Below are positions 8,404-26,964 of a stretch of 64,000 nt of DNA, in pieces (position 1 is the stretch's first letter; every line of letters starts with the position of its first letter). The notes under the pieces were generated by a model that worked only from the letters and a program-made list of their open reading frames with translations, did not search any database and had not been told where the DNA came from. The stretch is from Bacillota bacterium (GTDB taxonomy: Bacteria; Bacillota; Clostridia; Christensenellales; CAMQZB01): NCBI GenBank assembly GCA_044426045.1, contig JAWXUX010000006.1, positions 50,571-114,570 on the forward strand, given 5' to 3'. The position numbers and the translations under genes were made by a program.

Positions 8404-8427
8404 GAGTCACTCCTTTTATATAGCATT

Positions 8428-8456: not shown

Positions 8457-8712
8457 TAGTTTTTATTATTTTGCATACAGAATTTATGCTTCCGATTCCC
8501 AAGCATAATTAACCACGCAAACCTAGATAGCTTTAGTTTGTTTATTTATAATCTTCTTCACTTAACTAACTAGAGTATATAGTTTTTTTCTTGTATCAAC
8601 TATATCATCTTTCTTAAATTCAAAAAGACTCAATCAATAACAATGGACTTTTTCTTAGTAGTTTGCAGTGTTAAGTACTAGGAAATGATACTTGTGAATT
8701 TTGGGCGAAATG

Positions 8713-8749
8713 GCAAAAAAAAATGGTGGAAAAGTCAAAAGACTTTTCC
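8713..8749 (-). terminator. rho-independent terminator downstream of the P-loop NTPase gene
   Basis: Minus strand: GGAAAAGTC-TTTT-GACTTTTCC hairpin followed by ACCATTTTTTTTT. Confidence 0.6.
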
Positions 8750-8805
8750 GCCAACTTTAATGTCTCCTTGCCGTGACTTGAATGTAATAAATATACCAAA
8801 TATAA

Positions 8806-10275: not shown

Positions 10276-10503
10276 AATTACTCCTGTGAACTCGTTATAT
10301 TTACTAATATTATAGCACAGCATAAATGTTTGTCAATACTAAATTAAAATTATTTAATTTTTTATAGGTCGAGTGTTCAGAAGTGGATGCAAAAAAACGC
10401 CACGTAGTAATAATGGTTTTAACAGCATCTTGTTGGTGACTTGAAACCATTTGACAACTCTCCCAACTTATGGTACAACAAAACAATATTTGGAGGTGAA
10501 AAT

Positions 10504-11259: not shown

Positions 11260-11323
11260 ACCATTGAGCACTACAAGATACTAATAAATACTTTCGTATG
11301 ACATAGAACTCATATGAAGATTT

Positions 11324-11971: not shown

Positions 11972-12567
11972 TTTATCAATATATACCCTATCCAGCTTAG
12001 GCTCATCCTAGCTTCTTTAATTTTCACCTCAACTTCTTCTATTGCGCATTTAGCTTTATTTATTCCATCCTCTATATTCCTCTCTGCTAACGCACATTCT
12101 TTTCCCAAAACAAACATAGTCCACCCTAGAGCATCAATAAGATTCATTATAGCCATGTATTCTATATCCATAATTACTTCAGTAACTACGACTTCATGTT
12201 GATTTACTTTATTCAATGCCTCACTTAATATCTCTCCGACTTCAACCCTGAGTTTATAATAACCATTGTCCCACAATTGACCGCTAATAGGATACCCTAC
12301 TTTAATAATATCTACCCAACGCTCCTCCTCTTTAAATCTTTTTATCATTTTAATTAAATCGAAGCTATTTTTATCATTTACAGTTACTATTGTCCTAGCA
12401 ATTAAAACCAAAACAAAGAATAAAAAACATATTAAAAAATAATCTGAGCCACCAAAAAGCATTGTAATCAATGAACCTATTACTGCAGTAATAATTTGCT
12501 TTCCATCAATAATAAAACCTTCAATAAGACCTGTATTATTTTTAATATAAATCCAAAAACGTCTCAT
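11968..12567 (-). CDS. hypothetical membrane protein (2 N-terminal TM), fourth gene of the operon
   Basis: 199-aa ORF with a strong AGGAGGGAGA RBS. TM stretches are IITAVIGSLITMLFGG and FLICFLFFVLVLIARTIV. Confidence 0.55.
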   Translation of the reverse strand: MRRFWIYIKNNTGLIEGFIIDGKQIITAVIGSLITMLFGGSDYFLICFLFFVLVLIARTIVTVNDKNSFDLIKMIKRFKEEERWVDIIKVGYPISGQLWDNGYYKLRVEVGEILSEALNKVNQHEVVVTEVIMDIEYMAIMNLIDALGWTMFVLGKECALAERNIEDGINKAKCAIEEVEVKIKEARMSLSWIGYILIN

Positions 12568-12618
12568 TTCTCCCTCCTGAAAATTAACTTTACAATCACT
12601 ATCTATATAAATAACTTA

Positions 12619-13299
12619 TCAATTTATATCATTTGCATCATTTATCAAAAATTCAAGATAGTTAATCCTCTCTTTATATCGCATTTTCCTCTGTACACAA
12701 TTGATCATAGTATTTTCCAATAAAGAAAGTTTATTTTTATCTGCAAATAAATTAATTATGCTTGAATCATTTACTGCTACTGTTTTTTTCAAAACTGCTA
12801 AGTTCGGACTATCTTCATTATAAACAACAATATGAATATCAAAAATATCATTCGCTTTTGATAAATAAATATTCTGTTTATTACTTCTGTCATTAATCTT
12901 TGCTCCATTTACGAAATAACATCCTTCCTCATGTCTATTATTACTTCTTTCTATTAATTTATCTAGATTCTGAACTTGAACTTCGTAACATATTATTTTG
13001 TATCCTGACTCATATGCAGACATCAAAACATTAACTTGCTTAATGTCAGTCAAAACTGCTTCCCATATAAATGACTGTCCACACTTTATCAATTGCGCTA
13101 ATTCACAATATGCATGTTCCTTTGCATACATATACCGTTTATCCATATCTTCAATTTTACTAAATAAGTTTTCATAGAATAAATCTGCACTAATAATTCG
13201 ACAATTAAATTCTTTATACGTTTCCAAAAATGCCACTGCAAACGTACTTTTCCCGGCGGCAATATTTCCCGTTATTAATACTAATAATTTATCTTCCAT
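12619..13299 (-). CDS. P-loop kinase-like protein (AAA_33/zeta-toxin-sized), third gene of the operon
   Basis: Walker A ITGNIAAGKSTFA near the N-terminus of a ~226-aa protein, with a Walker-B-like FIWEAVLTD. The start overlaps the upstream gene. Confidence 0.7.
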   Translation of the reverse strand: MEDKLLVLITGNIAAGKSTFAVAFLETYKEFNCRIISADLFYENLFSKIEDMDKRYMYAKEHAYCELAQLIKCGQSFIWEAVLTDIKQVNVLMSAYESGYKIICYEVQVQNLDKLIERSNNRHEEGCYFVNGAKINDRSNKQNIYLSKANDIFDIHIVVYNEDSPNLAVLKKTVAVNDSSIINLFADKNKLSLLENTMINCVQRKMRYKERINYLEFLINDANDIN

Positions 13300-13951
13300 G
13301 ATTTCCCTTAACCTCATTTACTGTAATATATTCATTCATATTACTAAAGCTAATTTCATCATTTGCATCACGACAAATATCCATAGCAATCAAATCACAA
13401 TTTTTTATTTGAACATGATGATACCCTCCACCTGGATATGGGCTATTTTTAAGCAAGACGTTTGCCATTAAGACCATTATTGATCGTGTACAACAAATAA
13501 CATATCTAAAATCACCAGGTAAAGTCATGATGTATTCCATTATTCTATCATAAAATGCTATTGGACTTTCCATCCCTGGTATATTTAAATCTATTGCCTC
13601 AATTTCAGTTTTTCTCCATTGCTTGAGCCTAGTAGCACATTCTGGATACAACTCATCTATATCTTTGTGCGATAATCCCGCGATAACACCCATTCCAGCA
13701 GATACTAATTCTTCTGCAATAGTTATCTCGCGACCAAATTCTTGTGCAATAATAGAAAGCGTTTGAATGGTTTGTTTAAAATCTGAAGAAATGAATTTCG
13801 TCTCAGATCCGACAATAAATTTCTTCAACTCGCCACGCGCAATTAACATTGCTTGCTCCTTACCCAATGACGTTAACGGTTCTCCTTCTCCACCAGTAAT
13901 ATTTCTAATATTTTTTTCAGACTCCCCATGTCTAATAAATACTATTTCCAT
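13289..13951 (-). CDS. histidine-phosphatase (phosphoglycerate-mutase superfamily)-like protein, second gene of the operon
   Basis: VFIRHGESEKN RHG motif. Start set at the ATG at 13951, after a GGGGA RBS. The position of the usual distal SHG histidine reads CCTRS. Confidence 0.75.
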   Translation of the reverse strand: MEIVFIRHGESEKNIRNITGGEGEPLTSLGKEQAMLIARGELKKFIVGSETKFISSDFKQTIQTLSIIAQEFGREITIAEELVSAGMGVIAGLSHKDIDELYPECATRLKQWRKTEIEAIDLNIPGMESPIAFYDRIMEYIMTLPGDFRYVICCTRSIMVLMANVLLKNSPYPGGGYHHVQIKNCDLIAMDICRDANDEISFSNMNEYITVNEVKGNHGR

Positions 13952-13961
13952 AACTATCCCC

Positions 13962-15110
13962 TTATCCGTCGATACTATCCAACGATAAAATAACAATTTG
14001 TTTTATCAAATCCAATCTAGACTTCCTATTTAAAAAATTATGATCCGCTTCATCTATTATTTCATAGTTAATTTTAAACTTTTCTGCCCAATCACGCAAT
14101 TTTAATGAATCAACAAGAGAATCTCTCTCTGCCACTAAGAGTTTAACATTCTTATTAGATAATTTTTCGCAAATATTTAAGTTTTCCATTATCTTAGATG
14201 AAAGAAAGAAGCTTTCATCACAGTGCATCCCTTTACGAATAGTGTATCCATTTTTCATTAAGCTTGTATATTCTTCATCGTTTATAATTGTAGAATAATC
14301 TTCATCATTGATTACTGGAGCTATAATCGCCATTGATTCGATATTTTCTTGTTCATAAAAATATCTATTCATAGCCAAATAACATCCTGCACAATGAGCA
14401 ATTATGCCAACTCGATCAGATTTTTTCAAAAGAGCATTTATAGAATCATGCAAATTACAAATATGATCTTGGAATTTAATTTCTTGCAATAGTCCATCAC
14501 TCTCACCCATTGCCGCCAAATCAATTCGTAGAATTGGAAATCCTATTGCCGATAACACCCTTGCAATATCTATATATAATTTATATGGTCCAATTTTGTT
14601 CGATGAAAAATATCCGTGCACTATTACTTTAGGCAAATTACTATACTGATGACCCGTATGCAAATACCCTTTTAACTGATTACCTTGACTATTTATATCG
14701 AAACATTCCATCTCTAAAACATTCTTATCCAATAAACTAAGTATTATTAAATCAATATCTCGACGATCCTTTTCCCTATTCAATTTGAGCTTATCTTTTA
14801 TTACATCTGATATACTAGCAATACTATATCCATCCACCAAAATAGTATGATTAGCACCCCACCCTTCATAAATCGTGATTTGATTTGTCAGTATTATTTT
14901 TCTTTTCCCGCTTCTACTATATTCAACCTCATAATCTAACAACAACAGATTTTCAAACTCAGCTATGGAACAACCTAAATCAATATCATTTGTGTATTCT
15001 TTAATGCCATGAAGAACCAGTGCAGCTCCCATAATGACCCAAAATTTATTTCTATCTAATCCTAAATGATCTAATTCATTTAAAATTGAATGTCTATCCA
15101 TCATTTCCAA
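13962..15110 (-). CDS. fusion of a minimal Pol-beta-type nucleotidyltransferase and an alpha/beta-hydrolase-like domain, first gene of the operon
   Basis: N-terminus MGAALVLHGIKEYTNDIDLG (G[AS]-x13-DxD) plus KDRRDIDLI. The C-terminal half has VIVHGYFSS, an IIAHCAGC nucleophile elbow with Cys, ERDSLVD and ADHNF. AAGGAGA RBS before a TTG/ATG start. Confidence 0.65.
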   Translation of the reverse strand: MEMMDRHSILNELDHLGLDRNKFWVIMGAALVLHGIKEYTNDIDLGCSIAEFENLLLLDYEVEYSRSGKRKIILTNQITIYEGWGANHTILVDGYSIASISDVIKDKLKLNREKDRRDIDLIILSLLDKNVLEMECFDINSQGNQLKGYLHTGHQYSNLPKVIVHGYFSSNKIGPYKLYIDIARVLSAIGFPILRIDLAAMGESDGLLQEIKFQDHICNLHDSINALLKKSDRVGIIAHCAGCYLAMNRYFYEQENIESMAIIAPVINDEDYSTIINDEEYTSLMKNGYTIRKGMHCDESFFLSSKIMENLNICEKLSNKNVKLLVAERDSLVDSLKLRDWAEKFKINYEIIDEADHNFLNRKSRLDLIKQIVILSLDSIDG

Positions 15111-15211
15111 TTGCTATATCTCCTTGATCTACGTACTCAAAATCAATGTTTAACTTAAAAATTATAGAACTATTCCTAAAATACATAAGCTTACATATGT
15201 ATTTGATTGTA

Positions 15212-15240
15212 ATTATATCATAGATACTTTTGCATGTCAA
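15212..15240 (-). promoter_or_regulatory. consensus sigma-A promoter of the five-gene operon
   Basis: The minus strand reads TTGACA-17 nt-TGaTATAAT, about 100 nt upstream of the first start codon. Confidence 0.55.
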
Positions 15241-15307
15241 TATACCTCATTATATTACAAAATAATTAAGCACCTATGTATTTTTAACTGACGCAAGCCA
15301 ATACAGG

Positions 15308-15466
15308 AAATTCCACGCTTGTGCAATTACGAAAAGACTTATCACCACATTCACAAATACACAAAACTCCCAATCACATGGGATAGACTATACTCCATTT
15401 GCCACTCTGTCGAAGTTCTCTGCGAACTGCACGCAACCGTTGGGTGGTGGATTTTGACGTGATAAA
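15308..15466 (+). pseudogene. remnant of the 3' end of an excisionase-like gene (direct repeat of 11081-11240)
   Basis: Aligned by eye to 11081-11240: about 16 mismatches plus a 1-nt deletion (CACGGCAACC versus CACGCAACC) that breaks the frame. No 5' part is present. Confidence 0.8.
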
Positions 15467-15495
15467 AAGCAAATTACTAACATACCACTAAAAAA

Positions 15496-15756
15496 CTAAT
15501 CAACTTTCCTTCCACATTTTGGGCAGTTGTGAACAAATAATCCATCTTTGGATCTGAATAACAATAGGTATCCACATTTTTCGCACTGAACATGTGTTAT
15601 CACATAATGATACACAGCTATTCCTGCTCCACCCACTATAAACAAAGTCCAAGCTGGAAAGTTTATCGTCATGAAAAAATAGATAATGATAGCAATACAC
15701 AAAACACACACAATTCCCGTCGCAATCAAGATTTTTATTCCTTTACTTCTTTTCAT
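15496..15756 (-). CDS. small membrane protein with a C-terminal zinc ribbon
   Basis: 86 aa with two TM stretches, then CEKCG..(x16)..CPKCG. Confidence 0.55.
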   Translation of the reverse strand: MKRSKGIKILIATGIVCVLCIAIIIYFFMTINFPAWTLFIVGGAGIAVYHYVITHVQCEKCGYLLLFRSKDGLFVHNCPKCGRKVD

Positions 15757-15936
15757 ATAGTTACCCCCAATGATATCATTATTATAGCATAAAAGAATAA
15801 TTAGGCACGTAAATTTAGTGTAATTTAAAAGTAAATATTACATCACTACTTGCGTTATTTAAAATCTAATTCATACTCTTAAAAATAAAAATGAACTCAT
15901 ATCATAGTACACAAAAGCAACATAATTTTCAATTTT

Positions 15937-15962
15937 GGGTGACAAATTGTCACCCATTTTTC
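15937..15962 (+). terminator. terminator-like hairpin GGGTGACA-AAT-TGTCACCC followed by ATTTTTC
   Basis: Perfect 8-bp stem read directly. No annotated plus-strand gene lies upstream, so its function is unclear. Confidence 0.35.
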
Positions 15963-15994
15963 ATTCAAAAGTTACCCCGCGTTACGTTAAGTTT

Positions 15995-16063
15995 CGCAAG
16001 ATACTGCCCGCAATTGCTTGAAAACACGCACAAAACGCAAGATACCAGCAGTTACGCAAGTTA
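15995..16063 (+). repeat. direct repeats CGCAAGATAC (x2) and ACGCAAGTTA; candidate arm-type recombinase binding sites
   Basis: Copies at 15995-16004, 16036-16045 and 16054-16063, immediately left of the tRNA-half junction. A related TGCAAGATAA lies at the equivalent place (about 26423-26432) left of the second junction. Confidence 0.35.
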
Positions 16064-16082
16064 TTTCACGTATTTCCTGTGT

Positions 16083-16126
16083 CTCCTAAGGCTTTGTTAC
16101 AAGTTCGATTCTTGTATGGCCTACCA
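16083..16126 (+). other. att junction: 3' half of a tRNA-Arg(CCU)-like gene (anticodon loop to CCA)
   Basis: CTCCTAA (anticodon loop, CCT) - GGCTT - TGTT - ACAAG TTCGATT CTTGT (T arm) - ATGGCCT - A - CCA. No matching 5' half lies upstream. Confidence 0.6.
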
Positions 16127-16139
16127 TTTAAACACAAAA

Positions 16140-16162
16140 GTACCGAATTTCTCGGTGCTTTT
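16140..16162 (+). terminator. rho-independent terminator after the tRNA-half
   Basis: GTACCGA-ATTTC-TCGGTGC (one G-U pair) followed by TTTT. Confidence 0.5.
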
Positions 16163-16172
16163 AACATAATAT

Positions 16173-17279
16173 TTAGTTATTTGGAATCTCCCTATAATCA
16201 AGCTTAAAATCCAATCCACTTTCATCCATAAACATCTCATAAACTTTAATGTCTCTATCTTTCACCAATTGCAACAATATACCTTTATTTTCCTTACTCA
16301 TCTTGCTTCCAAGATATATTGCTTTAGGTTTAAGAGTTTTTGTAATTATTTTTTCTGTATTAGGACGACAAGTCAATATATAGCGCCACTCTTTTTCATA
16401 TGCCCAATCTTGTGATTTAGCTGTATTCGTTTTTACATAATGAAGCATATCTGGCACAATTATAGGCTCGTTATGCCCTATCGCAAATTGCAATCTATGC
16501 TTTAACATTTCATATTCATAGTTTGTAGCATCATAACGCATCTTAGAATAAATTATAGGATATAGTTCTAGCACATGCTGCTTGTTGCATTTATTTTGGC
16601 ACTTGTAGCATTGGAGTTTCAACTCAGACATATCGTCAGTGTCATATTCCAAACAAAATCCCTTATGGTAATCACTATAATGCGACCACATCAAAACCGA
16701 TGTTATCTCTTCAGAAAAACAAACTACACCAATCTCTTCCCGATGATCTTTTTGATGAAAAGCATGGCTTTCTTTAGCATATTGCTCTATATATGGACGA
16801 ATTTGCTCTTCCATTGACATTTCCAACAGACTTTCACGCAACCAATTAATATTTTCCTGTGAGGCTTCCATAATAGCTTTATGCCCTATTTCTACCACTT
16901 TTTCAAAATTAGTAGTCTTCATATCTTGCAAAGTTATTTCTCCACTTCTAACTTTCTCAATATTTTCTAGAATCTTCTCATTGCTAAACTCCTGCGCGAT
17001 TAAATCATCTACAAAAGTTGCCGAAACATGATAAAGACAATCGTATGGATCATTGAAATCAATTGGTTTAGAAAAATAAATTTTATCTTCTAGCAATGCG
17101 GACATGGAAAATTCAGATACAGACCTATATCTAAATAAACTTTTAGGCATAATTTTCGACTTTATAATATCAAGCTTTCGATATACTTCATCTTTGTGTT
17201 CATTAGTTGCATCACTTGGAATTTGCGATGCAAACAACAACTCAGCATATTCTTTCAATAAGTCATCACGTGTTTTCAT
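16173..17279 (-). CDS. DUF2971-family protein
   Basis: LFRYRSVSEF...KIYFSKPIDFNDPYDC matches the DUF2971 N-terminal signature as I remember it. Start set at the ATG at 17279, after a GAGGT RBS. It starts about 40 nt downstream of the restriction gene. Confidence 0.65.
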   Translation of the reverse strand: MKTRDDLLKEYAELLFASQIPSDATNEHKDEVYRKLDIIKSKIMPKSLFRYRSVSEFSMSALLEDKIYFSKPIDFNDPYDCLYHVSATFVDDLIAQEFSNEKILENIEKVRSGEITLQDMKTTNFEKVVEIGHKAIMEASQENINWLRESLLEMSMEEQIRPYIEQYAKESHAFHQKDHREEIGVVCFSEEITSVLMWSHYSDYHKGFCLEYDTDDMSELKLQCYKCQNKCNKQHVLELYPIIYSKMRYDATNYEYEMLKHRLQFAIGHNEPIIVPDMLHYVKTNTAKSQDWAYEKEWRYILTCRPNTEKIITKTLKPKAIYLGSKMSKENKGILLQLVKDRDIKVYEMFMDESGLDFKLDYREIPNN

Positions 17280-17318
17280 TAGATACCTCAACTATTTTAA
17301 GCTACTAAAAAACAATTT

Positions 17319-18782
17319 TTAGCCGTTTGCAGCAAACTTATTTACCGTCATATTTGATATAAGCTTGCTTATATCCGTGCCTAGATTATTAACAATTATA
17401 GAATCAAAATCTTCATAATCTATATCTCTAACATCATGGAATATGTGATTGTATAAATATTCTGCAAATGTATTTGCAAGAACTATGACAATTGGAGTTC
17501 CAATTATATCTCTTTTTGCTGCAGGAACATAACGTGGCGTTACAACTATAGTATACTCCCCACCTATTTCCTCTCTATGCTCCCTTAATCTACCCGCATT
17601 TATGCCTATCAATTTATTTGCAGTAGACTTAGATTCTACAGCAAACTTTTTCTTTTTTGTGATATATAAACATTCAATATCCGTATGTGCTGCCCCACCA
17701 CGCTTCTGTGCATCTACATTTGAAAACATATTAAAGCCTTCTGCTAAAACATCTTCAAATAAATATGCCGTTGCGTTATCCATATTGTTTGCATATGACT
17801 CTATCAATTTAGGTAATTCCAATAAAGTATTCAATCCTTCTGATTCGCCAATCTCTTTCAATAGCAATTGCGGATAGAAGTTATAGATTTCTTTGATGCT
17901 ATCAATAGTCATTCGTTCTGGGTCATCTAATTTTATAGGACTTTCAAAGCAACTATGCACCTCTAGCATACTTTCAACAAAAGTCTTTATATCATGTGAT
18001 AATTCTATGTAACCTAATGTCGCTTTTCTTGGCGTTGGATTACTCTTGCTGTTTGTCTTTGTTGGATGAAATAGTTCACAAACTAAATCTCCCTCAAACT
18101 TCTCTATAATACCCGCGTTTTTTAATAATGTTTGAGTGTAATATTCCCATTCATAAACAGTTTTTACAAAAGTATGTTCATCCACTCTAAATAATTCTGC
18201 CATGCGATTTGCCGATATATCCCTTAGTTGCAAAATATCATTAATCAAAGTTTCATAATTATCTCTTGTTAAATCTTTTTGGAACATTATTAAATACTCA
18301 ACTTCGTGGTTATAAAGCTTGCCATTAAGTCTTTCATCGCATAATAATTTAAAAATCAATCTAAATGGATATAGTTGGAATTCCTTATTTGTTCCACTAC
18401 CAGGATGTTGAAATTGCATAGCAAACATCATCGAGATAAATATCTTTTTAATTTTTTCATCATCATTAATATGTTTTAAAAATAGATTTCCTAGCGGACT
18501 GAACATAAATTTTTTACATCCATCAACTTTGTTTTCATACCCAAACATCCAAAATTCTAATGTATTTATACGATGATTAATAGAGTCTAAAGGCCTATCA
18601 CTAGGATTTCTTGTTTTATATAATTCTAATACCGCAAGCCGTTCTTGCATTCTATGTCTTTCCACATCTGAAACATCTGTTTTGCAACTATTTTTAACAT
18701 CTAGTGCCACTGCTTTTATCATTTCGTAGCTACTAGTATGTTTATATAATATCCACTTGTTTCTTTCCCCCATAATTGGCAT
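17319..18782 (-). CDS. putative type IIS restriction endonuclease (HgaI-like architecture)
   Basis: 487 aa. It follows the two m5C MTases in the operon (8-nt gap after the second) and is the last R-M gene. C-terminal PD-(D/E)xK-like pattern HTDIECLYITKKKKFAVESKS. Confidence 0.6.
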   Translation of the reverse strand: MPIMGERNKWILYKHTSSYEMIKAVALDVKNSCKTDVSDVERHRMQERLAVLELYKTRNPSDRPLDSINHRINTLEFWMFGYENKVDGCKKFMFSPLGNLFLKHINDDEKIKKIFISMMFAMQFQHPGSGTNKEFQLYPFRLIFKLLCDERLNGKLYNHEVEYLIMFQKDLTRDNYETLINDILQLRDISANRMAELFRVDEHTFVKTVYEWEYYTQTLLKNAGIIEKFEGDLVCELFHPTKTNSKSNPTPRKATLGYIELSHDIKTFVESMLEVHSCFESPIKLDDPERMTIDSIKEIYNFYPQLLLKEIGESEGLNTLLELPKLIESYANNMDNATAYLFEDVLAEGFNMFSNVDAQKRGGAAHTDIECLYITKKKKFAVESKSTANKLIGINAGRLREHREEIGGEYTIVVTPRYVPAAKRDIIGTPIVIVLANTFAEYLYNHIFHDVRDIDYEDFDSIIVNNLGTDISKLISNMTVNKFAANG

Positions 18783-18790
18783 AATATTAC

Positions 18791-19855
18791 TTACCTCCCT
18801 ATTCCTTCTAAAACCTTTTTCATTAATAATGGAGGTATTGATTCTCCAATTATAGTACGAATAAATGTATCTGACGATCCTGATGGGAAACTAATGTCAT
18901 CAGGTATGGATGATACAATAAAAGTTTCAAGTAATGTCAATACACGCGCATCAGAATACGTTCCATCAGCCAATAATCTTCCTGGATGTACATTATTATG
19001 AGAACTCATACTTCCGCTGAAAGTAGTTCTAGTTGGACATGGCTGTTCCCAATCCATACGCTTAAATGTATTATGGAATCCTTTAATTCTTGATCCGTCC
19101 TCTTTTTTGGGATAAAAAACTTCATTTGTTATAGCACTCTTACCTGTCGGCGTATGCTTCAGTGCAATTATAGCCCTGTCATTATGAATTTTCGCATTGT
19201 GCCATGGTATGTTTGAATCTTCTCCCGACTCAAGCGACGGCAAGTGACCTATTGCACTTTCTAATGTAATTTCATTTTCTTTACATGGCCACGCCCATTT
19301 CAATCCCTTCTTAAACATTTTAATTATAGCCCTAGGTCTAGATTGACAAATGCCATAATCTTTAGCATTTAAAACTCGCACTTCTACATCATATCTATCT
19401 ACATATTTATCAATTAAGATTTCTTCCAGCATGCTAAATTTATCTTCATGCGGAAAATACATTGTCAAAAATGTTGGTACATTTTCTATTAAAATATAGT
19501 CGAAATTACACTCATCTATTATTTCTAAAGCATGCATAATGAGAAAATTTCGTCCATCTTTCTCGTAATGCATTTGATGTTTATTCTTCCCCAAAGTACT
19601 TAGTCCTTGGCAGGGTGGTGTCGCAATTAAAACCTTAACATCATTTTCATTAACAATATTTATCATCCGTTTTTTTATTAAATCAGATGTTATATCTCCG
19701 CAATTCATTTCTGAATTTGGATGCAGATACTGATAACAATCTGCCCTTTTCTGCAAAAGTTCATTAGCTGCAATAATATCAACGTTTGTTTGACTCGACA
19801 GAAGCTCTCCAATTCCAGCACTAGCAAACAATGATATTGCTTTCAATTTATCCAT
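18791..19855 (-). CDS. DNA (cytosine-5)-methyltransferase (second of a pair)
   Basis: FASAGIGE (I), ATPPCQGLS (IV), ENVP (VI), QSRPRAI (VIII), GESIPP (X). Paralogous to 19848-20918. Confidence 0.9.
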   Translation of the reverse strand: MDKLKAISLFASAGIGELLSSQTNVDIIAANELLQKRADCYQYLHPNSEMNCGDITSDLIKKRMINIVNENDVKVLIATPPCQGLSTLGKNKHQMHYEKDGRNFLIMHALEIIDECNFDYILIENVPTFLTMYFPHEDKFSMLEEILIDKYVDRYDVEVRVLNAKDYGICQSRPRAIIKMFKKGLKWAWPCKENEITLESAIGHLPSLESGEDSNIPWHNAKIHNDRAIIALKHTPTGKSAITNEVFYPKKEDGSRIKGFHNTFKRMDWEQPCPTRTTFSGSMSSHNNVHPGRLLADGTYSDARVLTLLETFIVSSIPDDISFPSGSSDTFIRTIIGESIPPLLMKKVLEGIGR

Positions 19856-20918
19856 TCTTTATTTCTCCAACTATTTTTTTCAACATTAATGGTGGGATAG
19901 ACTCACCTATACACTGCCTAATCAGTATTTCAGAAGTATCGTCAGGAATATTCCAATTTATTGGCAATGAATTTAATATCATCAACTCCAAGGGAGTAAG
20001 CACTCGTGCATCTGAATATGTGCCGTCTTTCAACAATCGACCAGGATGCACATTTCTTTGTGAACCTATACAATCGTTCCTTATAGTTATTGTAGGAGCA
20101 GGCAAATCCCACCTTATTCTCCTATACGAAGATTCATAACCCTTAATTTTTGTGCCATCATCTTTTTGAGGATAATATTTTTCATTTGAAAAAGCCGATT
20201 CCCCAGTTGGGGTATGTCTCATCCATAAAATATTAGATGTGCTATGTTTTCTCGCAAAGTGCCATTTAATATCTGATTTCTCCCCAGCTTCCAAGGATGG
20301 TAAATTACCAATAGCATCCTCAACTGAAACTTTCTGTTTCACAACTGTTGGCCAATTCCAAACTTTATCTTTTTTACACATCTTAATTATAGCCCTCATG
20401 CGTGTTTGAGGCACACCATAATCAGACGAATCAACTACTTTGCTTTCAATGTTATATTCACAACCAAATTCTTCTTCCAAAATTTCCATAACAGACATCA
20501 TCGAATGCTTATAATAAATTTTAATTTTCAATAATAATGGTACATTCTCAATAAGCACATATGTAGGAGTTGTTTTTTTTATAAAATTAATAACATACGT
20601 TATTAAATAGTTCCTCTCATCACTAACCATTAAATCTTGTGAACGATTTTTACCAGCCACACTCATGCCTTGGCATGGCGGAGATGCTAACAAAAAATCA
20701 AGATCTTTAGGACAGTTATCAATAATACTATTGAAAACCTCAGCATTAGTTATATCGCCAGTAACAACCGTTGTTTCTGGTGCAATTGCTCGATATAATT
20801 CTGCTCTTTTCGGCAACAATTCATTAGCTACAACAACATCAATTCCAACGTCTTTGAAGTAGGTCTCCCCTATTCCTGCACTAGCAAATAAAGATACGGC
20901 CTTTAATCTCTTACTCAT
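19848..20918 (-). CDS. DNA (cytosine-5)-methyltransferase (first of a pair)
   Basis: FASAGIGE (I), ASPPCQGMS (IV), ENVP (VI), QTRMRAI (VIII), GESIPP (X). Its end overlaps the start of the second MTase by 8 nt. Confidence 0.9.
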   Translation of the reverse strand: MSKRLKAVSLFASAGIGETYFKDVGIDVVVANELLPKRAELYRAIAPETTVVTGDITNAEVFNSIIDNCPKDLDFLLASPPCQGMSVAGKNRSQDLMVSDERNYLITYVINFIKKTTPTYVLIENVPLLLKIKIYYKHSMMSVMEILEEEFGCEYNIESKVVDSSDYGVPQTRMRAIIKMCKKDKVWNWPTVVKQKVSVEDAIGNLPSLEAGEKSDIKWHFARKHSTSNILWMRHTPTGESAFSNEKYYPQKDDGTKIKGYESSYRRIRWDLPAPTITIRNDCIGSQRNVHPGRLLKDGTYSDARVLTPLELMILNSLPINWNIPDDTSEILIRQCIGESIPPLMLKKIVGEIKNG

Positions 20919-21112
20919 AGCACCACATCCATAATATCACCAATATTACAATTTAATGCAATACAAATTTTAACCATAACTTCCATGGATACAGGTAAAT
21001 TATTATTTAGTTTAGTTATGGTTGTAGAACCTAATCCCGCTGACTCTTTTAAATCTTTTCTTTTGATTCCTAAATCAATCATCTTTTTCCATAATTTATT
21101 ATAAGATATCAT
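20915..21112 (-). CDS. XRE-family HTH controller (C) protein of the R-M operon
   Basis: True start is at the internal ATG (MISYNKLWKKMIDLGIKRKDLKESAGLGSTTITKL...), after a GGAGG RBS. The stop overlaps the MTase start (ATGA). Confidence 0.8.
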   Translation of the reverse strand: MISYNKLWKKMIDLGIKRKDLKESAGLGSTTITKLNNNLPVSMEVMVKICIALNCNIGDIMDVVL

Positions 21113-21133
21113 AGACACCTCCACTTCAATATA

Positions 21134-21183
21134 AATATACCATACACATACCGATATGTCAATATTTTTATCCGATATATCGG
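21134..21183 (-). promoter_or_regulatory. promoter of the C-M-M-R operon with C-box-like operator repeats
   Basis: The minus strand reads TTGACA-17 nt-TATATT. A perfect palindrome CCGATATATCGG (21172-21183) lies 9 nt upstream of the -35. A half-site ATATCGG sits between -35 and -10 (21151-21157). Confidence 0.5.
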
Positions 21184-21280
21184 CAAATATCTTTAGGAAA
21201 TAAAATATATGCTGCAAATATTAAAACTTGATACTTCATTTAATTTTTCAGATATTATCTCCAAATTCTTTAAACTGCCC

Positions 21281-22618
21281 TCACCCTCCAAACACTTCAT
21301 CGAGTGCATCGGCGGCGATTCGGTCGCTGCTTTTTAGGAAGTGGCTGTAGATGTCGGTGGTGGTGCTGGTTCTTGCATGTCCTGCTCTGCCTGATACTGT
21401 GACTAGTGGCACTCCTGCTGATATTTGCATGGTGATATTTGTGTGCCTGAGCGAATGGACGGTGATGTGGTCGAGCCCTGCTTTTTCTAGCGTTTTATCT
21501 AGCCAATTTCTTATTGTTGCAGGCGCTATCGGCGAGCCATTCCATTGCACGAACAGCCTGTTGCTATCTTGCCACGTATCTCCAAGCTGAGTTTTCGTTT
21601 CTTCATACCATTTTAGATATTCAGCAAGCGTTTCGACTAACAATTCCGACATAGCAATTGTCCTCTTGCTCGTTTCCGTTTTTGGAGATTCCGTTATCGT
21701 TCCAAATTCCTTGACTGTGACCACCGAACGATTTATTGATATTGTTTTATCTACTAGGTCTATATCGCTCCATTCGAGCCCACACAGCTCGCCACGTCTT
21801 AACCCCGTGAGTAGCAAGATTGACATGGCGGATTTAATCCTTATATCATCAAGCTGTGAAACTGTTTTATAAAAAACCTTGGCTTGTTCATCACATAGAA
21901 ACTCTATTTCCTTTGGCGGTCTTTTTGGAAATGTTATGAAGTCAGCTGATGCCCAATTATCTTGAATGAGCCTTTGTCTTTTAGCTTTTGCGAGTATCGC
22001 ACGTACAGTTCGTTTTATTTTATGTATTGTTTCATAAGCATACCGTTCTTTTTTCACCATCACATTGAATATTTTTTTCACTGGCATATTCATTATTTTA
22101 GCCACTTTTTCCGCAGTTTCAAGGCTGATATTTCCACCTTTCAGCAGTGTGTTGAGTGAGGGCGAAGCCATTTTATTATCTTTATGAAAATCCCTATATC
22201 TCAAACCATGCTCTTTCATGAGTTCTCTGAAATCACCTTTTGAAGTCACTGTTGTTATAACTTTTTGTTTCTTATCAAGCATATCATAACAATTTTGAAT
22301 TGCCACTGGCGTGAGTTCTTTCAGCTTATATCCACCAATATATTCGTTAGCCATTTTGAGTGCGAACACCGCATTTGAATAGTAGCTGAGTGACAAATTG
22401 TTTCTCACATCCTCCAACCACTTTTCTGCATATTCTTGGAATAAAGTATCTGGCGTTGTATCTAGCCCATTGCATCCGCCCGAAATGTCCTTCATTTCTT
22501 GTTCAAACTTTTCCGCAAGCAAGACTGCTCCACGTTGCATTTGCTTTGCAGTGAGCCCCTTTTCAGGCTTATACGTTGTTGATTTTGTAACAATTTTTCC
22601 ACTGCCTTTATCTTTCAA
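21281..22618 (-). CDS. int: tyrosine recombinase / integrase
   Basis: LTGLRRGELCGLEWSDI (R), HSLRHTNIT (HxxR), GHARTSTTTDIYSH (H..Y). The N-terminal SAM-like region reads ..TYKPEKGLTAKQMQRGAVLLAEKFEQE. It has a TTG start overlapping the stop of a small upstream ORF. Confidence 0.9.
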   Translation of the reverse strand: MKDKGSGKIVTKSTTYKPEKGLTAKQMQRGAVLLAEKFEQEMKDISGGCNGLDTTPDTLFQEYAEKWLEDVRNNLSLSYYSNAVFALKMANEYIGGYKLKELTPVAIQNCYDMLDKKQKVITTVTSKGDFRELMKEHGLRYRDFHKDNKMASPSLNTLLKGGNISLETAEKVAKIMNMPVKKIFNVMVKKERYAYETIHKIKRTVRAILAKAKRQRLIQDNWASADFITFPKRPPKEIEFLCDEQAKVFYKTVSQLDDIRIKSAMSILLLTGLRRGELCGLEWSDIDLVDKTISINRSVVTVKEFGTITESPKTETSKRTIAMSELLVETLAEYLKWYEETKTQLGDTWQDSNRLFVQWNGSPIAPATIRNWLDKTLEKAGLDHITVHSLRHTNITMQISAGVPLVTVSGRAGHARTSTTTDIYSHFLKSSDRIAADALDEVFGG

Positions 22619-22619
22619 T

Positions 22620-22799
22620 TTAACTTGAATTTTGAAGGTTGTTCCACTTTATTTTATATTGAACGCTCCCCTTTTTACCTATATGCTCTGCATATTCTTG
22701 AAGTGTTAAACCATTCAAATACAGTTCATCAAATACAGGCTTATGTTTTTTGAGTTCACCATCAAGTTTTTGCCTTATAAATTTATAATCCACTTGCAC
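22620..22799 (-). CDS. possible small DNA-binding protein (59 aa, GTG start), translationally coupled to int
   Basis: Below the ORF-track size cutoff. The frame reads VQVDYKFIRQKLDGELKKHKPVFDELYLNGLTLQEYAEHIGKKGSVQYKIKWNNLQNSS. LTLQEYAEHIGKKGSV resembles an HTH. The RBS is weak. Confidence 0.3.
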   Translation of the reverse strand: MQVDYKFIRQKLDGELKKHKPVFDELYLNGLTLQEYAEHIGKKGSVQYKIKWNNLQNSS

Positions 22800-22802
22800 A
22801 TC

Positions 22803-23222
22803 CTAATATTCCGCTATCGTCATGCTGTGTGGATATTTTATTCTTTTTCCATTCTTCACGTCAATACCGTGCCTGATATTATATCTTCTGCATTTCAAAT
22901 ATCTTTCACGATCAGACTTCATTCTTTTCAACACATACCTAGCCCTATTATAAGGCTCTACTGGCACATTTCTCGTGTTTATTTCTTCAGCATGTTCTGC
23001 CGTGATTTCCGCATCAAGTAAGTCATATGGCACATTATCAATAGCCACGCTAAGCAAATGCTCAAGACTTTCTATAAATACTTCATATTCTAATAGCATG
23101 CCATCTTCAAGATCATCTTCATCAACTTTTTGCAATTCAACTATTTCATTTGTCATATCTCTTATTTCGTTGAAAATGCTCAAATATTTTGATATCACAC
23201 TAGATTTCGTAGCCATAACCAA
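22803..23222 (-). CDS. hypothetical protein
   Basis: 139-aa ORF upstream of the small ORF and int. Acidic N-terminal half and basic C-terminal half. No family recognised. Confidence 0.5.
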   Translation of the reverse strand: MVMATKSSVISKYLSIFNEIRDMTNEIVELQKVDEDDLEDGMLLEYEVFIESLEHLLSVAIDNVPYDLLDAEITAEHAEEINTRNVPVEPYNRARYVLKRMKSDRERYLKCRRYNIRHGIDVKNGKRIKYPHSMTIAEY

Positions 23223-23343
23223 TCTCCATTTTTATATTTTTCTTATTATATCATATATTTTTAAAAATTTAAAATAAACTTGGAAACCAGTTGCACAATT
23301 TAAAGAATTAAGCTACTATAAGCAAAATTTGGAGGAATGGACA

Positions 23344-23622
23344 ATGAAAAATATTATAGTAGACACAATACTCTATGGCAAAATGCAAGAAAATATTGGC
23401 GTATTATCACCACGAGCAAAAAAACTTGTGGGCAAGGTTTCCGACAGCTATGACGATTTGATTATCAATTTGAACCCAACACAAAAAGAACTTCTTGAAA
23501 TATTCACAAATAACCTAGAAAATAGTCACCTAGCTGAAACAGAAAACTATTTCAAGGAAGGCTTCATATGTGGCTTTAAAATAGCAACTGAGGTGCTTGA
23601 AGATGTATCTGCCAAGAATTAG
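23344..23622 (+). CDS. hypothetical small protein
   Basis: Start at the ATG 8 nt after a GGAGG RBS (MKNIIVDTILYGKMQEN..). Divergent from the int block and overlaps the next gene's start. Confidence 0.5.
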   Translation: MKNIIVDTILYGKMQENIGVLSPRAKKLVGKVSDSYDDLIINLNPTQKELLEIFTNNLENSHLAETENYFKEGFICGFKIATEVLEDVSAKN

Positions 23623-24217
23623 AACAATAACAGAAGTTGTAGATTTTTTCAAATCGCAAGATGCAGAAACCGCTGTCACCAAAAATTTACTTGCTAAACT
23701 TGTAAAAGACGGCGAAATATGCTCTGTGAGAATAGGTTCAAAATTGCTAGTCAATCTCGACGAATGCATCAGCTTTTTTAAATGCAACGCTGATATACAG
23801 TCAACAACTTCACAGCTACACGCTGTCACCAAGAGATCAATGCACACCACTGGAGAAATAGCGAGACTCTTTCTCGCTCACGATCAAAACACCCGAGTTC
23901 GCAGAAGCATGGTGAAATCAGCAATAGCAACCAAACAAATCAACGGAATTTGGCTATATCAAGGTTATTGGCTTATTGATATACAGGATTTTATCAACAT
24001 ACTCACAAATGGGAAAACCTTCGCCACAACCAACGAAGTGCCTAGAATAAGAAACTACGAAAAATCCTACCACACCCTACAATCCGAATACCCAAACTCC
24101 GCCCCAACATGGAACCAACTCCACACCCTAACAAAAAACAAAACGGTCACCACATATTATCATGGCAACCGTTGGATTGTGAATTTGGATGAGATTATAG
24201 ATACATATTATCGATAA
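23603..24217 (+). CDS. excisionase-like DNA-binding protein with three HTH_17-type repeats
   Basis: MYLPRIRTITEVVDFF..LLAKLVKDGEICSVRIGSKLLVNLDECISFF; TTGEIARLF..INGIWLYQGYWLIDIQDFINIL; PRIRNYEKSY..WNQLHTL..YYHGNRWIVNLDEIIDTY. GAGGTG RBS. Confidence 0.65.
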   Translation: MYLPRIRTITEVVDFFKSQDAETAVTKNLLAKLVKDGEICSVRIGSKLLVNLDECISFFKCNADIQSTTSQLHAVTKRSMHTTGEIARLFLAHDQNTRVRRSMVKSAIATKQINGIWLYQGYWLIDIQDFINILTNGKTFATTNEVPRIRNYEKSYHTLQSEYPNSAPTWNQLHTLTKNKTVTTYYHGNRWIVNLDEIIDTYYR

Positions 24218-26016
24218 ATATTAATTATGCCGAATGGCAAAATATCTTGTACCGACATATCACCATCTATAGACAATATTTCCATATATGTTTTATAACC
24301 CTCTACTAAAGTAGCCAATATAACACCAATATCAGAAGTATTTTTATGTTTCGCAATATATACGATTTCAGTAATTAGTTGCGTTAAATAACTATATAAA
24401 TGTTCAATATAAATTACCAGTGAAACAGATTCACCAATTGCAGAATGAGCAATTTCGTTACGAATCCTATACAGCCTCTGTATATGCCACTCGAGCCTTT
24501 TTTCATGTTCTCTAAGTCTTTTAACAATATTATTTTTATCCGCAATAAGCTCTTTTAATTCTAAAAATCTAAAAGTTAAAAGCTGATTTTGAGCACAAGC
24601 ACATTGTAGTACTTCACTTTTAATTTCATCACGCATAACAGCTATAATATCAGCAACTAGTTTGTGCTTATCTATCTCCTGCAAATTAATAGCTAAAGAA
24701 TCTAAATTAACTTCACATCGAATACAGTCCTCTGCAAAATTTCTAAACAACCTATAGATATATTTTGCATTCAATACTGCTGGCAATACACCTTTTATAT
24801 GAGTAATTATATCAGTATAATTGCCAGTATTCATTATTGATTCTAATGCTATCCACAGGTTAATATATTTAGTTTCCTGAAACATTGATGCACGACTTAA
24901 ACTTACATAAGAAAAAACCGGCATTAACTTATTAGCCAATAAACTATATTGAGACGAATTAAATATCTCTACAGTTTGATTGAATACATTATTAGTAGAT
25001 GCATCCAAATACTCAGAAGGATTAATTAGTTGTTTTGAGTCTATTGTAACACCGCTATTGCCATTAAAAACTATAATTTCCGCATCAGAAATAATTGTTT
25101 TACTTGCATAATTATAATAAGAAGCAACGCTTAATTTTTTATTTAGCGATTGAACCCCTTTTAATGCAGCCGCATTAAAATCATGTGCATTGACATTAAT
25201 TATACCATAATAATTATCTGCATTTAATAGACTCTTCAATTTTAAAGAATTAGAAAATTGATCATAAATCTCATTACCTTTACAACAATTAATTCCTAAC
25301 AATCCCAATGCATCTTTGAGATTTACAATATTACCATTAGTTTTAATTTTATAAAATACAGTATAACCATCGCAACTAGCCTTTAATTTATTAACAAAAT
25401 TTGTCCATTTTTCATTTGCATCAATATGTTTATAAAATATTTCTTTACATATTTTACTTAATGCCAATTCAGTCCATCCGTTATGCACACATAAACTAAC
25501 TAAAATATTAATAAAAATATTTTGATTTTCTAAATTTCCTTCATCGATTGCAAGTTTTAGTTCTTCAAGTACGCTTTCAAAATAACATTCATTCAGATTA
25601 TCTTTGTATGAACATAATTCACTGTATAACAATCGCATTCCACAATAAAACTTATCTGATCCACCATCTTCCTTAGACTTGCTAGTTACCTTTTTATTTA
25701 AAATTCGTAATATTGAATGTTTTATAGCTAAATCATACTTTTCTAAAATTTTATCACTTTTAAAAATAGATATGGCTTCATCTTTAACATCAGAAAAATT
25801 ATGTAATGAAATATTTAAAGTACCATCAATAATTATCTTAACAATACTCAATAGTTCATCATAGATATTACATACATTTTTCACCTTAAATTTATATGAA
25901 TCAATCGTATATATATAACATAATTCTCTCCATCTTTGAATAAAAAATATATATTTATCATCTACTTTTGAACGCCTAAGTCTATCATCATTCATTTTCT
26001 TTAACATATTTTTCAC
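24208..26016 (-). CDS. large HEPN-domain protein (putative abortive-infection RNase)
   Basis: 602 aa. The C-terminal region has RLEWHIQRLYRIRNEIAHSA, which is the HEPN Rx4H motif (RNEIAH) in its usual helical context. The N-terminal ~450 aa are unassigned. AAGAGGTG RBS. Confidence 0.7.
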   Translation of the reverse strand: MKNMLKKMNDDRLRRSKVDDKYIFFIQRWRELCYIYTIDSYKFKVKNVCNIYDELLSIVKIIIDGTLNISLHNFSDVKDEAISIFKSDKILEKYDLAIKHSILRILNKKVTSKSKEDGGSDKFYCGMRLLYSELCSYKDNLNECYFESVLEELKLAIDEGNLENQNIFINILVSLCVHNGWTELALSKICKEIFYKHIDANEKWTNFVNKLKASCDGYTVFYKIKTNGNIVNLKDALGLLGINCCKGNEIYDQFSNSLKLKSLLNADNYYGIINVNAHDFNAAALKGVQSLNKKLSVASYYNYASKTIISDAEIIVFNGNSGVTIDSKQLINPSEYLDASTNNVFNQTVEIFNSSQYSLLANKLMPVFSYVSLSRASMFQETKYINLWIALESIMNTGNYTDIITHIKGVLPAVLNAKYIYRLFRNFAEDCIRCEVNLDSLAINLQEIDKHKLVADIIAVMRDEIKSEVLQCACAQNQLLTFRFLELKELIADKNNIVKRLREHEKRLEWHIQRLYRIRNEIAHSAIGESVSLVIYIEHLYSYLTQLITEIVYIAKHKNTSDIGVILATLVEGYKTYMEILSIDGDMSVQDILPFGIINIYR

Positions 26017-26045
26017 CTCTTACTTCAACAAAATTCAATTATCTG

Positions 26046-26175
26046 TTGACTTTTTATCCGTTATAGTATATAATATTAATATAGTATCATACTATATATA
26101 AATCGCTAAAAAGAGGTTCATTCTTGAGAGTCGAGATTAACATCCACTCAAAAAGATTATACCTCTTTTATTTAT
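26046..26175 (+). ncRNA. candidate small transcription unit (~95-nt RNA) divergent from the HEPN gene
   Basis: TTGACT-17 nt-TATAAT at 26046-26074. Downstream, AAAGAGGT (26110-26117) pairs with ACCTCTTT (26161-26168), encloses an inner TTGAG/CTCAA helix, and is followed by TATTTAT. Confidence 0.3.
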
Positions 26176-26468
26176 ATCTTTTACTATCTGTTTTTTAACA
26201 TAAATATTAAATCTATTATACCACATATTTCGTTATTTGTAAATGCAATAAACCAACAATTCAGTACCCAAACAAATTATAATATAAACGAATAAAAACA
26301 TTTTAGGCACCCAAAAAAGCACCTTTGTCACCATGGAAGTTATTGAAAGATATAAAAGTTATTTATTTTTATACATAAAATCTATAAAATGGTTGATATG
26401 ATATGAAAATAACGTAAAATATGCAAGATAATGTATGCTATATTCATTGTTCAATGGAGTATTACTTG

Positions 26469-26513
26469 TTCCTAAGCGCTAGGCCATTGGTTCGATCCCA
26501 ATTAGGAACACCA
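26469..26513 (+). other. att junction: 3' half of a tRNA-Arg(CCU) gene with encoded CCA
   Basis: TTCCTAA (loop, anticodon CCT) - GCGCT - AGGCC - ATTGG TTCGATC CCAAT (T arm) - TAGGAAC - A - CCA. It matches the canonical ..CCTAAGCG..AGGxC..GGTTCGA.. pattern of bacterial tRNA-Arg(CCU). No 5' half lies upstream. Confidence 0.7.
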
Positions 26514-26518
26514 TTAAA

Positions 26519-26550
26519 GCACCGTTTTGCGGTGCTTTAATGGTGTTTTA
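26519..26550 (+). terminator. terminator after the tRNA-half
   Basis: GCACCG-TTTTG-CGGTGC followed by TTTAATGGTGTTTTA. Confidence 0.5.
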
Positions 26551-26706: not shown

Positions 26707-26872
26707 TTATCCGAATATGCTATCCAGTTTATCCGCAGCTTCTTTATCACTGCTCTTTATGAAGTGGCTGCAAAATCGGTTGTGGTGCTGGTTCCTCGCT
26801 GTCCTGCCCCTCCGCTTACCTCACCCGCGGCACACATGCCATTATTTGAAGCGTTATATTTGTGTGCCTGAC
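26707..26872 (-). pseudogene. tyrosine-integrase C-terminal remnant (frameshifted, 5'-truncated)
   Basis: DNA aligns with the 3' end of int (21281-21450). Translation gives VRHTNITLQIMACVPRVR*, then in another frame VSGGAGQRGTSTTTDF.., then ..SHFIKSSDKEAADKLDSIFG*. Compare HSLRHTNITMQ..GRAGHARTSTTTDIYSHFLKSSDRIAADALDEVFGG* in int. Confidence 0.8.
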
Positions 26873-26964
26873 CTCTTGATTTCGGTTATTTTTCATAAAA
26901 TGCACTGCATATTTCTCCACCGTTTTGGTGATACTAAATAAAAACAGAACTTTTGGAGGTTTTT

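Follow-up and report, generated by a model that had tools for sequence, protein, structure and literature searches.

The closest described counterpart of the system examined here is the transfer RNA (tRNA)-dependent lysogeny of actinobacteriophages, which was shown experimentally for Fionnbharth (subcluster K4) and for cluster L (Guerrero-Bustamante and Hatfull, 2024; PMC10865867). In these phages the attachment site and the tRNA gene have a common core of ~10 bp, the tRNA is not rebuilt when the phage integrates, and a phage-borne tRNA of the same isotype complements the loss. The same study describes the anticodon loop as a common site in mycobacteriophages, cites the Lactobacillus johnsonii prophage Lj965, and speculates that the element-borne tRNA could in turn receive a second copy (PMC10865867). 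In classical tRNA-targeting islands, as set out in the Islander account (PMC4383910), a carried fragment regenerates the target tRNA. Here we analyzed a 64-kb stretch of DNA from a Bacillota bacterium (GCA_044426045.1, contig JAWXUX010000006.1), referred to as the window, which holds two 3' halves of tRNA-Arg(CCU) genes, H1 and H2. The best reading is that they were displaced from two different tRNA-Arg(CCU) genes, both of which were cut in the anticodon loop by insertion of an element.

The elements that we associate with these halves resemble those of tRNA-dependent lysogeny in their tyrosine integrase, a chromosomal site within a tRNA gene, a core of ~10 bp and the absence of rebuilding. 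However, they are not phages, they carry defence cargo between tRNA and integrase, their hosts are gut Clostridia and their target is here a tRNA-Arg, and they form natural stacked arrays. The position of the replacement tRNA also differs: it lies at an almost constant 183 bp from the core, inside the attachment-site arm, whereas in Fionnbharth it lies ~2.8 kb from the integrase gene, as judged from deletion coordinates. With classical islands they share an anticodon-loop crossover by a tyrosine integrase, a displaced 3' fragment at the far end and several islands per slot. In classical islands, however, all fragments of an array fit one 5' half, while the elements described here leave an orphan 5' half, bring a whole tRNA and produce arrays whose fragments come from different genes. 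An anticodon-loop sublocation class of tRNA-targeting islands was reportedly recognized by Williams in 2002. Split tRNA genes are also known from Nanoarchaeum equitans, in which the halves bear leader and trailer sequences that complement each other and are assembled into working tRNAs. As in that archaeon, the 5' and 3' halves described here are encoded apart and broken in the anticodon loop; unlike there, we noticed no complementary flanks and an intact copy is supplied, so nothing suggests that the halves are used.

We examined the window with ARAGORN (for tRNAs), Rfam at gathering thresholds, Pfam, PADLOC, PHROG and tblastn. In addition, 80 loci (designated by L numbers, as are further contigs) were retrieved with an integrase alignment of 26 sequences, comprising the window copy and 25 homologues, from species-representative genomes that are mostly metagenome-assembled genomes of gut or rumen Clostridia. 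Hidden Markov models (HMMs) of tRNA 5' and 3' halves were built from related tRNAs and applied to a search space of 1.3 Mb. The following features of the window, all on the plus strand, make up the two halves:

16083..16126, plus strand: H1, 3' half (positions 32-76) of a split tRNA-Arg(CCU) of the 75-nt type (sequence, HMM)
16083..16091, plus strand: common core CTCCTAAGG where element A meets element B, the putative crossover region in the anticodon loop (core at both junctions of relatives)
16140..16163, plus strand: intrinsic terminator of the split tRNA gene, GTACCGAATTTCTCGGTGCTTTT (homologous hairpins behind element-borne tRNAs)
26469..26513, plus strand: H2, 3' half (positions 32-76) of a second, different tRNA-Arg(CCU), with its core at 26469-26476 (sequence, HMM)
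26519..26541, plus strand: terminator of the H2 gene, GCACCG-TTTTG-CGGTGC followed by T's, hairpin at 26519-26535 (terminator scan)

Both halves have the exact geometry of a tRNA-Arg(CCU) from position 32 to position 76 with an encoded CCA, and tRNA likeness begins precisely at 16083 and at 26469. Each runs through an anticodon loop with CCT, the 3' strand of the anticodon stem, the variable loop, a perfect T arm, a 7-nt acceptor strand, A73 and CCA. In H1 these segments read CTCCTAA, GGCTT, TGTT, ACAAG-TTCGATT-CTTGT, ATGGCCT, A and CCA; in H2 they read TTCCTAA, GCGCT, AGGCC, ATTGG-TTCGATC-CCAAT, TAGGAAC, A and CCA. The variable loop is thus 4 nt in H1 and 5 nt in H2, the latter corresponding to the 77-nt tRNA type. 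The 3'-half HMM matched exactly two sites in the window, H1 and H2 (E ~1e-3 in the 1.3-Mb search space), and the 5'-half HMM matched nowhere in the window. ARAGORN found no intact tRNA in the 64 kb, and Rfam at gathering thresholds gave zero matches. The same kind of 3' half, with the same loop start position, occurs at 23 places in the related loci; this recurrence indicates that H1 and H2 exceed chance. The original prediction had described two tRNA-Arg(CCU) 3' halves with CCA, their own terminators and no 5' half, and the geometry, the HMM and ARAGORN bear this out. A transfer-messenger RNA or another RNA family was also considered as the identity of the pieces, and nothing in the window matched with ARAGORN or Rfam.

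The acceptor strands (ATGGCCT in H1, TAGGAAC in H2) and the anticodon-stem strands (GGCTT and GCGCT) rule out a common 5' partner. The original prediction had listed this incompatibility of the acceptor strands as an oddity; it is real, and two separate source genes would explain it.

The related loci suggest how such halves arise. An intact tRNA-Arg(CCU) is present in 28 of the 80 loci, and in 25 of these 28 (integrase at 47-63% identity) tRNA and integrase gene are on opposite strands, with the tRNA downstream of the integrase gene at a distance of 0.25 kb to at least 9 kb. Relatives that are more distant adjoin tRNA-Arg(CCG), tRNA-Arg(ACG), Thr, Ala and other tRNA genes. This adjacency argues that the integrase family targets tRNA genes and that the clade of the window targets tRNA-Arg(CCU). 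An orphan 5' half that ends at the anticodon loop lies 162-183 bp, mostly exactly 183 bp, upstream of the intact tRNA in 20 of the 24 loci with enough sequence. Where all three pieces are held by one locus, the orphan 5' half pairs at 12 of 12 positions (acceptor plus anticodon stems) with the far 3' half in seven of nine cases, and the intact tRNA in those loci pairs only with itself. The pairs covary between loci, both in the acceptor stem (GCTTCCA/TGGGAGT, GCTTCTG/CAGGAGT, GGATCCG/CGGGTCT) and in the anticodon stem (AGCCC/GGGCT, AACCC/GGGTT). Left and right junctions share only C-CTCCTAA-GG (9-10 bp), as seen in L012, L015, L018, L022, L024 and L079; non-tRNA DNA follows directly after the CCTCCTAAGG of the orphan 5' half, and non-tRNA DNA likewise precedes the far 3' half. 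Because the 5' half pairs with the far 3' half and not with the intact tRNA, the resident tRNA has been split and the element brings a complete gene. As read from their DNA, the relatives thus show an architecture of splitting and replacement.

Among the relatives, element size ranges from 5.8 to 15.5 kb, and the smallest element (L022, 5.8 kb) consists of a repressor, a DnaD-like and a DnaC-like gene, an excisionase, the integrase and the tRNA. The same architecture is found in the CCG and ACG clades and in one IMG/VR contig. The family is uncommon in viral sequence, with 8 relatives in 2.9 million viral contigs, and no virion or lysis family occurred among the element genes examined (open reading frames (ORFs) of the window island with Pfam and PADLOC; four L022 and six window ORFs with PHROG). 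PHROG matches of these four and six ORFs were to regulator and replication families, plus one family of unknown function, and the Pfam and PADLOC matches of the island ORFs were to defence and regulatory families. The elements are not temperate phages, though they work like the phage system. We also observed that in L037 the 3' half (11901-11944) lies on the integrase strand, immediately downstream of the integrase, an orientation opposite to that in all other loci.

Based on these relatives, we propose the following course of integration. A lambda-type tyrosine integrase would insert the element into the anticodon loop of the resident tRNA-Arg(CCU), with only the 9-10-bp core (C-CTCCTAA-GG) common to attachment site and tRNA; because the core is so short, integration would leave the tRNA unrebuilt. 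Of the resident tRNA, an orphan 5' half would remain at the left junction, and the right junction would keep the orphan 3' half together with its terminator. The element would supply a whole tRNA-Arg(CCU), usually 183 bp inside its left end, followed by the terminator, a cargo slot and the integrase reading back toward the tRNA. As the replacement tRNA holds the same core, it would be a target for the next element. The cell would presumably need the replacement tRNA-Arg(CCU).

For the window, three elements would account for the order of features: element A on the left, element B in the middle (16083-26468) and element C on the right. Element C would have been present first, with its tRNA beside its integrase. 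Element B would then have entered the tRNA of element C, leaving H2, its terminator and an integrase remnant (26710-26932) on the right. Element A would finally have entered the tRNA of element B, leaving H1 and its terminator at the head of the cargo and integrase of B. Element A would accordingly be the youngest and leftmost element, running past the left edge of the window, and the nested order of the three is suggested by this arrangement. Split-and-replace integration, with serial re-targeting of the replacement tRNA, probably explains H1 and H2.

The surroundings of the halves are consistent with this reading, since each half is followed by a terminator and then by an integrase or its remnant in the orientation of the family, as expected of an element that owned the tRNA. 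Behind H1, the hairpin ACCGAATTTCTCGGT is homologous to the terminators behind the intact element-borne tRNAs of L012, L015, L017, L020 and L022. The terminator scan flagged this hairpin (16142-16156) on the minus strand only, and on the plus strand GCTTTT falls below the T-run rule of the scan. The acceptor strand and T loop of H1 resemble those of the element-borne tRNA of L042, and H1 would be the 3' part of element B's own replacement tRNA. The H2 terminator resembles that of the L042 tRNA; its core hairpin is kept in the sister strain GCA_044426065.1, and a 20-bp extension is specific to the window. Beyond it, the integrase remnant reads toward H2, with its stop codon ~197 bp from H2, and its DNA is 83% identical to the 3' end of the L042 integrase gene. 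The 197-bp gap falls within the short tRNA-to-integrase gaps of the relatives (85 bp in L040, ~245-337 bp in most others). In L040 a 3' half is likewise followed directly by the integrase gene, and in L038 as well as L040 the 3' half precedes cargo and/or integrase as in the window. The closest intact relative of H2 is the tRNA of L031, and a 5' half with the acceptor strand GTTCCTA and the stem strand AGCGC, complementary to H2 at 12 of 12 positions, is present in the gut metagenome contigs L137 and L115. H2 would derive from the tRNA gene that adjoined the integrase of element C.

Stacked arrays of the expected kind occur in nature. In L040, two orphan 5' halves are stacked before an intact tRNA. 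A search pattern of three consecutive 5' parts with a period of ~217 bp identified 35 metagenome contigs, most of them labelled human gut, with stacks of 2-4 orphan 5' halves. In the metagenome contigs L113-L147, of which L124 and L128 are examples, an intact tRNA is preceded by as many as four orphan tRNA-Arg(CCU) 5' halves with a ~217-bp period, and in L124 two types of 5' half alternate. One pair of contigs gives a before-and-after comparison: 398-732 of L137 matches 7055-7389 of L145, and 725-1265 of L137 matches 12217-12757 of L145 (L145 as its reverse complement). An element-borne tRNA that is intact in L137 is thus interrupted in L145, exactly in its anticodon loop, by a 4.8-kb segment that has a tRNA of its own, and an 8-bp core is duplicated. 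The elements of the metagenome stacks carry ParA, ParB, RepA_N/DUF6017 and ArdA (L137 where examined). We considered whether these stacks belong to the integrase family of the window; tblastn found no integrase homologue within 12 kb, and the cargo resembles that of integrative and conjugative elements (ICEs). Given this cargo and the lack of an integrase homologue, the stacks support the principle in nature and not in the window's integrase family. We also considered demonstrating the nested order through at least two matched pairs of halves per locus; the halves of L040 and L020 are mismatched, and L145 fits by one base.

Several observations weigh against serial splitting and replacement as the origin of H1 and H2. 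Neither a 5' half nor an intact tRNA was seen for this island, its left end lying beyond the sequence read, and element A shows no integrase in the 18 kb available; in 1-16082, tblastn with the integrase of element B as query gave no match. The 5' and 3' halves are mismatched in two of nine testable loci, L020 and L040, which indicates that arrays may be scrambled and that strict nesting is not guaranteed. In L028, L031, L032 and L065 an intact tRNA lies by the integrase without an orphan 5' half; recombination of the orphan half with the element tRNA may have healed the left junction there, which would fix the element in place. The L137/L145 pair represents a different, ICE-like element family, and tblastn found no homologue of the window integrase within 12 kb in these metagenome loci. 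Moreover, the advantage of the inner over the outer 5' half in L145 is a single position (12 versus 11 of 12).

The four loci without an orphan 5' half are also what classical tandem integration would predict, in which the 3' fragment in each attachment site rebuilds one host tRNA-Arg(CCU) and H1 and H2 are displaced or diverged copies. That the window holds 3' halves only agrees with this explanation, which is the textbook layout for tRNA-targeting islands in the Islander description (PMC4383910). We nevertheless consider it unlikely: the acceptor and anticodon-stem strands of H1 and H2 cannot serve one 5' half, 20 of 24 relatives have an unrebuilt tRNA plus a whole second tRNA, and the terminators are homologous to those of element-borne tRNAs and are followed by an integrase in the family orientation. 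The original prediction had read both halves as attachment-site junctions of tandem elements in one tRNA slot. Serial anticodon-loop integration, the tyrosine integrase and the defence cargo all held up, while the relatives indicate that the tRNA is not rebuilt and that a whole replacement is carried instead. The intact tRNA that it placed left of the window is likewise expected from the geometry of the relatives, though not itself seen; under split-and-replace integration it would be preceded by matching 5' halves stacked ~220 bp start to start. Alternatively, H2 could be the host's original 3' half at the true right end of the array, with the integrase remnant left from an unrelated older event. 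The GC content climbs from ~32% to ~40% just right of H2, and in L137 and L115 the complementary 5' half is outermost in the stack, directly behind promoter-like sequence. That 5' half, however, is of the 75-nt type and H2 of the 77-nt type with its 5-nt variable loop; the integrase C-terminus lies 197 bp off and reads toward H2 as in the family layout, and the terminator resembles that of an element-borne tRNA. We thus regard a host origin of H2 as very unlikely.

A further explanation, raised as a second oddity in the original prediction, is that the halves are expressed as free-standing acceptor/T-arm minihelices with a terminal ACCA and serve a separate function, for instance as decoys or as substrates of tRNA enzymes. 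The pairing in H2 is real: G plus the loop remnant pairs with the acceptor strand at 8 of 8 Watson-Crick positions, and the minihelix is the minimum-energy fold (-11.4 kcal/mol). H1 can form a weaker, 5-bp closing helix (z -2.33), and promoter-like consensus sites lie upstream of H2 at 26046-26074 and 26393-26420, which are scan hits and not evidence of expression. The H2 fold is, however, ordinary when compared with shuffled sequences (z -1.66; 14 of 200 shuffles fold as well), and a terminator-like hairpin (15936-15956) lies upstream of H1. In the sister strain, ~96% identical across the H2 region, T32 is replaced by C32, which disrupts the helix, and the half does not take up the fold (z -0.23). 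Lack of conservation in homologous elements was a refuting condition named in the original prediction, and over 25 orphan halves in-register pairing was erratic, varying from 2 to 8 of 8 and following tRNA type and not half status; H1 is unpaired in the register of H2. As the closing helix is neither conserved nor covarying among copies, the minihelix reading fails, and we consider it highly improbable. The natural tRNA 5' end GTTCCTA (L137, L115) nearly equals G plus the CTCCTA loop, which gives a simple source for the complementarity of H2. Furthermore, G and the unusual T32 would come from the element B junction and the acceptor strand from the tRNA of another element, so that the two could not have co-evolved before insertion. 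We judge the minihelix to be a chance by-product.

If split-and-replace integration with serial re-targeting is correct, each newcomer would destroy the resident tRNA-Arg and the cell could come to lean on the element copy. Should that replacement be needed, loss of the element would remove the tRNA-Arg(CCU) relied on, and this addiction-like hold could stabilize defence islands in the manner of an addiction module. The element copy, at a fixed 183 bp, would be the next landing pad, so the slot could grow recursively into a nested stack in which the order of the orphan halves records the history of arrival. A mechanism shown experimentally only in actinophages (2024) would thereby extend to elements other than phages, which are common in gut metagenomes of humans and animals. 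It is possible, though we find it doubtful, that splitting and replacement, with this hold on the cell, reaches beyond a few actinophages and is a widespread and self-propagating means by which defence islands are built in gut Firmicutes. More speculatively, the orphan halves may be used as RNAs or as decoys for tRNA-targeting nucleases of defence or counter-defence. There is also a consequence for island-mapping tools, which take an intact tRNA beside an integrase for the host gene in regenerated form and expect displaced fragments to match this tRNA. In the window's integrase family the intact tRNA would be foreign, the host gene dead and the fragments of one slot derived from several genes, and borders and counts would be miscalled.

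The remaining features of elements A, B and C in the window are as follows:

1..16082, no strand assigned: right-hand part of element A, with defence cargo and an Xis-like gene at 10441-11259 (Pfam, PADLOC)
15994..16063, plus strand: three direct repeats of ACGCAAGATA type in the right-end arm of element A (all within 70 bp, none with more than 1 mismatch)
16173..21217, minus strand: cargo slot of element B between tRNA and integrase (Pfam, PADLOC)
16173-17291, minus strand: PDC-S31/DUF2971 (Pfam, PADLOC)
17319-18782, minus strand: type II restriction enzyme
18791-20918, minus strand: two C5 methylases
20915-21217, minus strand: HTH_26 regulator
21281-22618, minus strand: tyrosine integrase of element B (Pfam: Phage_integrase, Phage_int_SAM_3, HTH_26 insert)
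22803..24217, no strand assigned: group of small core genes of element B, made up of the next three entries
22803-23222, minus strand: 139-aa ORF
23329-23622, plus strand: DUF6809 (Pfam)
23597-24217, plus strand: Xis-like protein of 206 aa, related to the one at 10441-11259
24208-26016, minus strand: 602-aa ORF, variable cargo in the second slot of element B (no family match)
26412..26430, plus strand: GCAAGATA-type repeats in the right-end arm of element B, one copy at 26421-26430 (motif search)
26710..26932, minus strand: frameshifted C-terminal integrase remnant of element C, residues ~373-444 (tblastn)

The GCAAGATA-type repeats that the original prediction placed left of both junctions were recovered, three in the arm of element A and one in that of element B. 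A TTGCAAGATA/TTGCAAAATA motif occupies the equivalent position in the element-end arms of L051 and L049, which belong to other clades, and the repeats are candidate arm-type integrase-binding sites.

In the cargo of element A, Pfam and PADLOC identify a restriction-modification pair (C5 methylase and type II restriction enzyme), a Mokosh-like helicase, a zeta-like kinase and further genes. The 3' end of its Xis-like gene is copied 4.2 kb downstream of the full gene (11078-11240 versus 15305-15466; 160 bp, 90% identical), and the two copies bracket five cargo genes at 11324-15110, among them a zeta-like kinase, a histidine phosphatase and a hydrolase. This block looks like cargo inserted or exchanged by recombination. 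Within it, two overlapping ORFs (199 and 215 aa; 11324-12567) take the place of what the sister strain and several Logan contigs have as one gene of 414 aa, which points to a frameshift in the window copy. The GC content is ~32% from 1 to ~26,500 and ~40% rightward. To the left, the Logan contigs L001 and L100 show that cargo continues for ~3 kb beyond the window start and is then followed by an insertion sequence (IS). An rve-type (IS transposase-like) ORF lies there, ~3 kb left of the window start (L100, 11793-12518), at the break point of all Logan contigs of the island, and it probably explains where short-read assemblies of the island stop. On the 313-kb sister contig JAWXUW010000001.1 (L102), cargo is still present at position 137,688. 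We sought an island-free contig of the same species through the right-flank proteins, and only short contigs of the same study turned up.

The integrase of element B lacks the first ~10-20 residues common to its homologues, whose alignment opens with MATIxK, and a stop codon lies 9 codons upstream of its TTG start; judged from these features, it is probably crippled. With the N-terminus of the B integrase gone and element C reduced to a stub, the elements in the window look decayed. The sister strain (GCA_044426065.1, JAWXUW010000001.1, L089) is 99.97% identical to the window over 11282-22417 and diverges just beyond; 22418-24070, which encodes the N-terminus of the integrase, the 139-aa ORF, DUF6809 and the greater part of the Xis-like protein, is absent from it. 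The 602-aa ORF had no Pfam, PHROG or PADLOC match. At its position the sister strain has a different gene, encoding a GGACT-domain protein of 538 aa, which indicates that the slot near the right end of element B swaps cargo between strains.

Right of H2, the 3'-half HMM found no host 3' half, and only P-arm-like repeat modules occur there. A module of ~100 bp is present three times (26560-26706, 27440-27580 and 28400-28540) and shares homology with the right-end arms of both A and B. In every copy there is a TTAGGGTGACAAA hairpin together with a GCAAGATA-type motif and with CACTTCATCCAATAAAAAA, behind which a terminator lies, and the modules flank a SnoaL-like gene and a PNPOx/4Fe-4S gene. Further elements, now decayed, may have left these modules as scars, or the modules may be a cassette-like repeat. 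A strain difference lies right of the SnoaL-like gene (27471-31443 of the window versus 4530-6973 of L089): the window has PNPOx/Fer4, DUF4234 and a 700-aa BspA-type leucine-rich repeat (LRR) protein, while the sister strain has a patatin-like gene and others. This difference indicates that the variable region runs ~5 kb past H2. The 700-aa BspA-type LRR protein also contains an Ala/Lys/Glu-rich repeat at 29688-29997.

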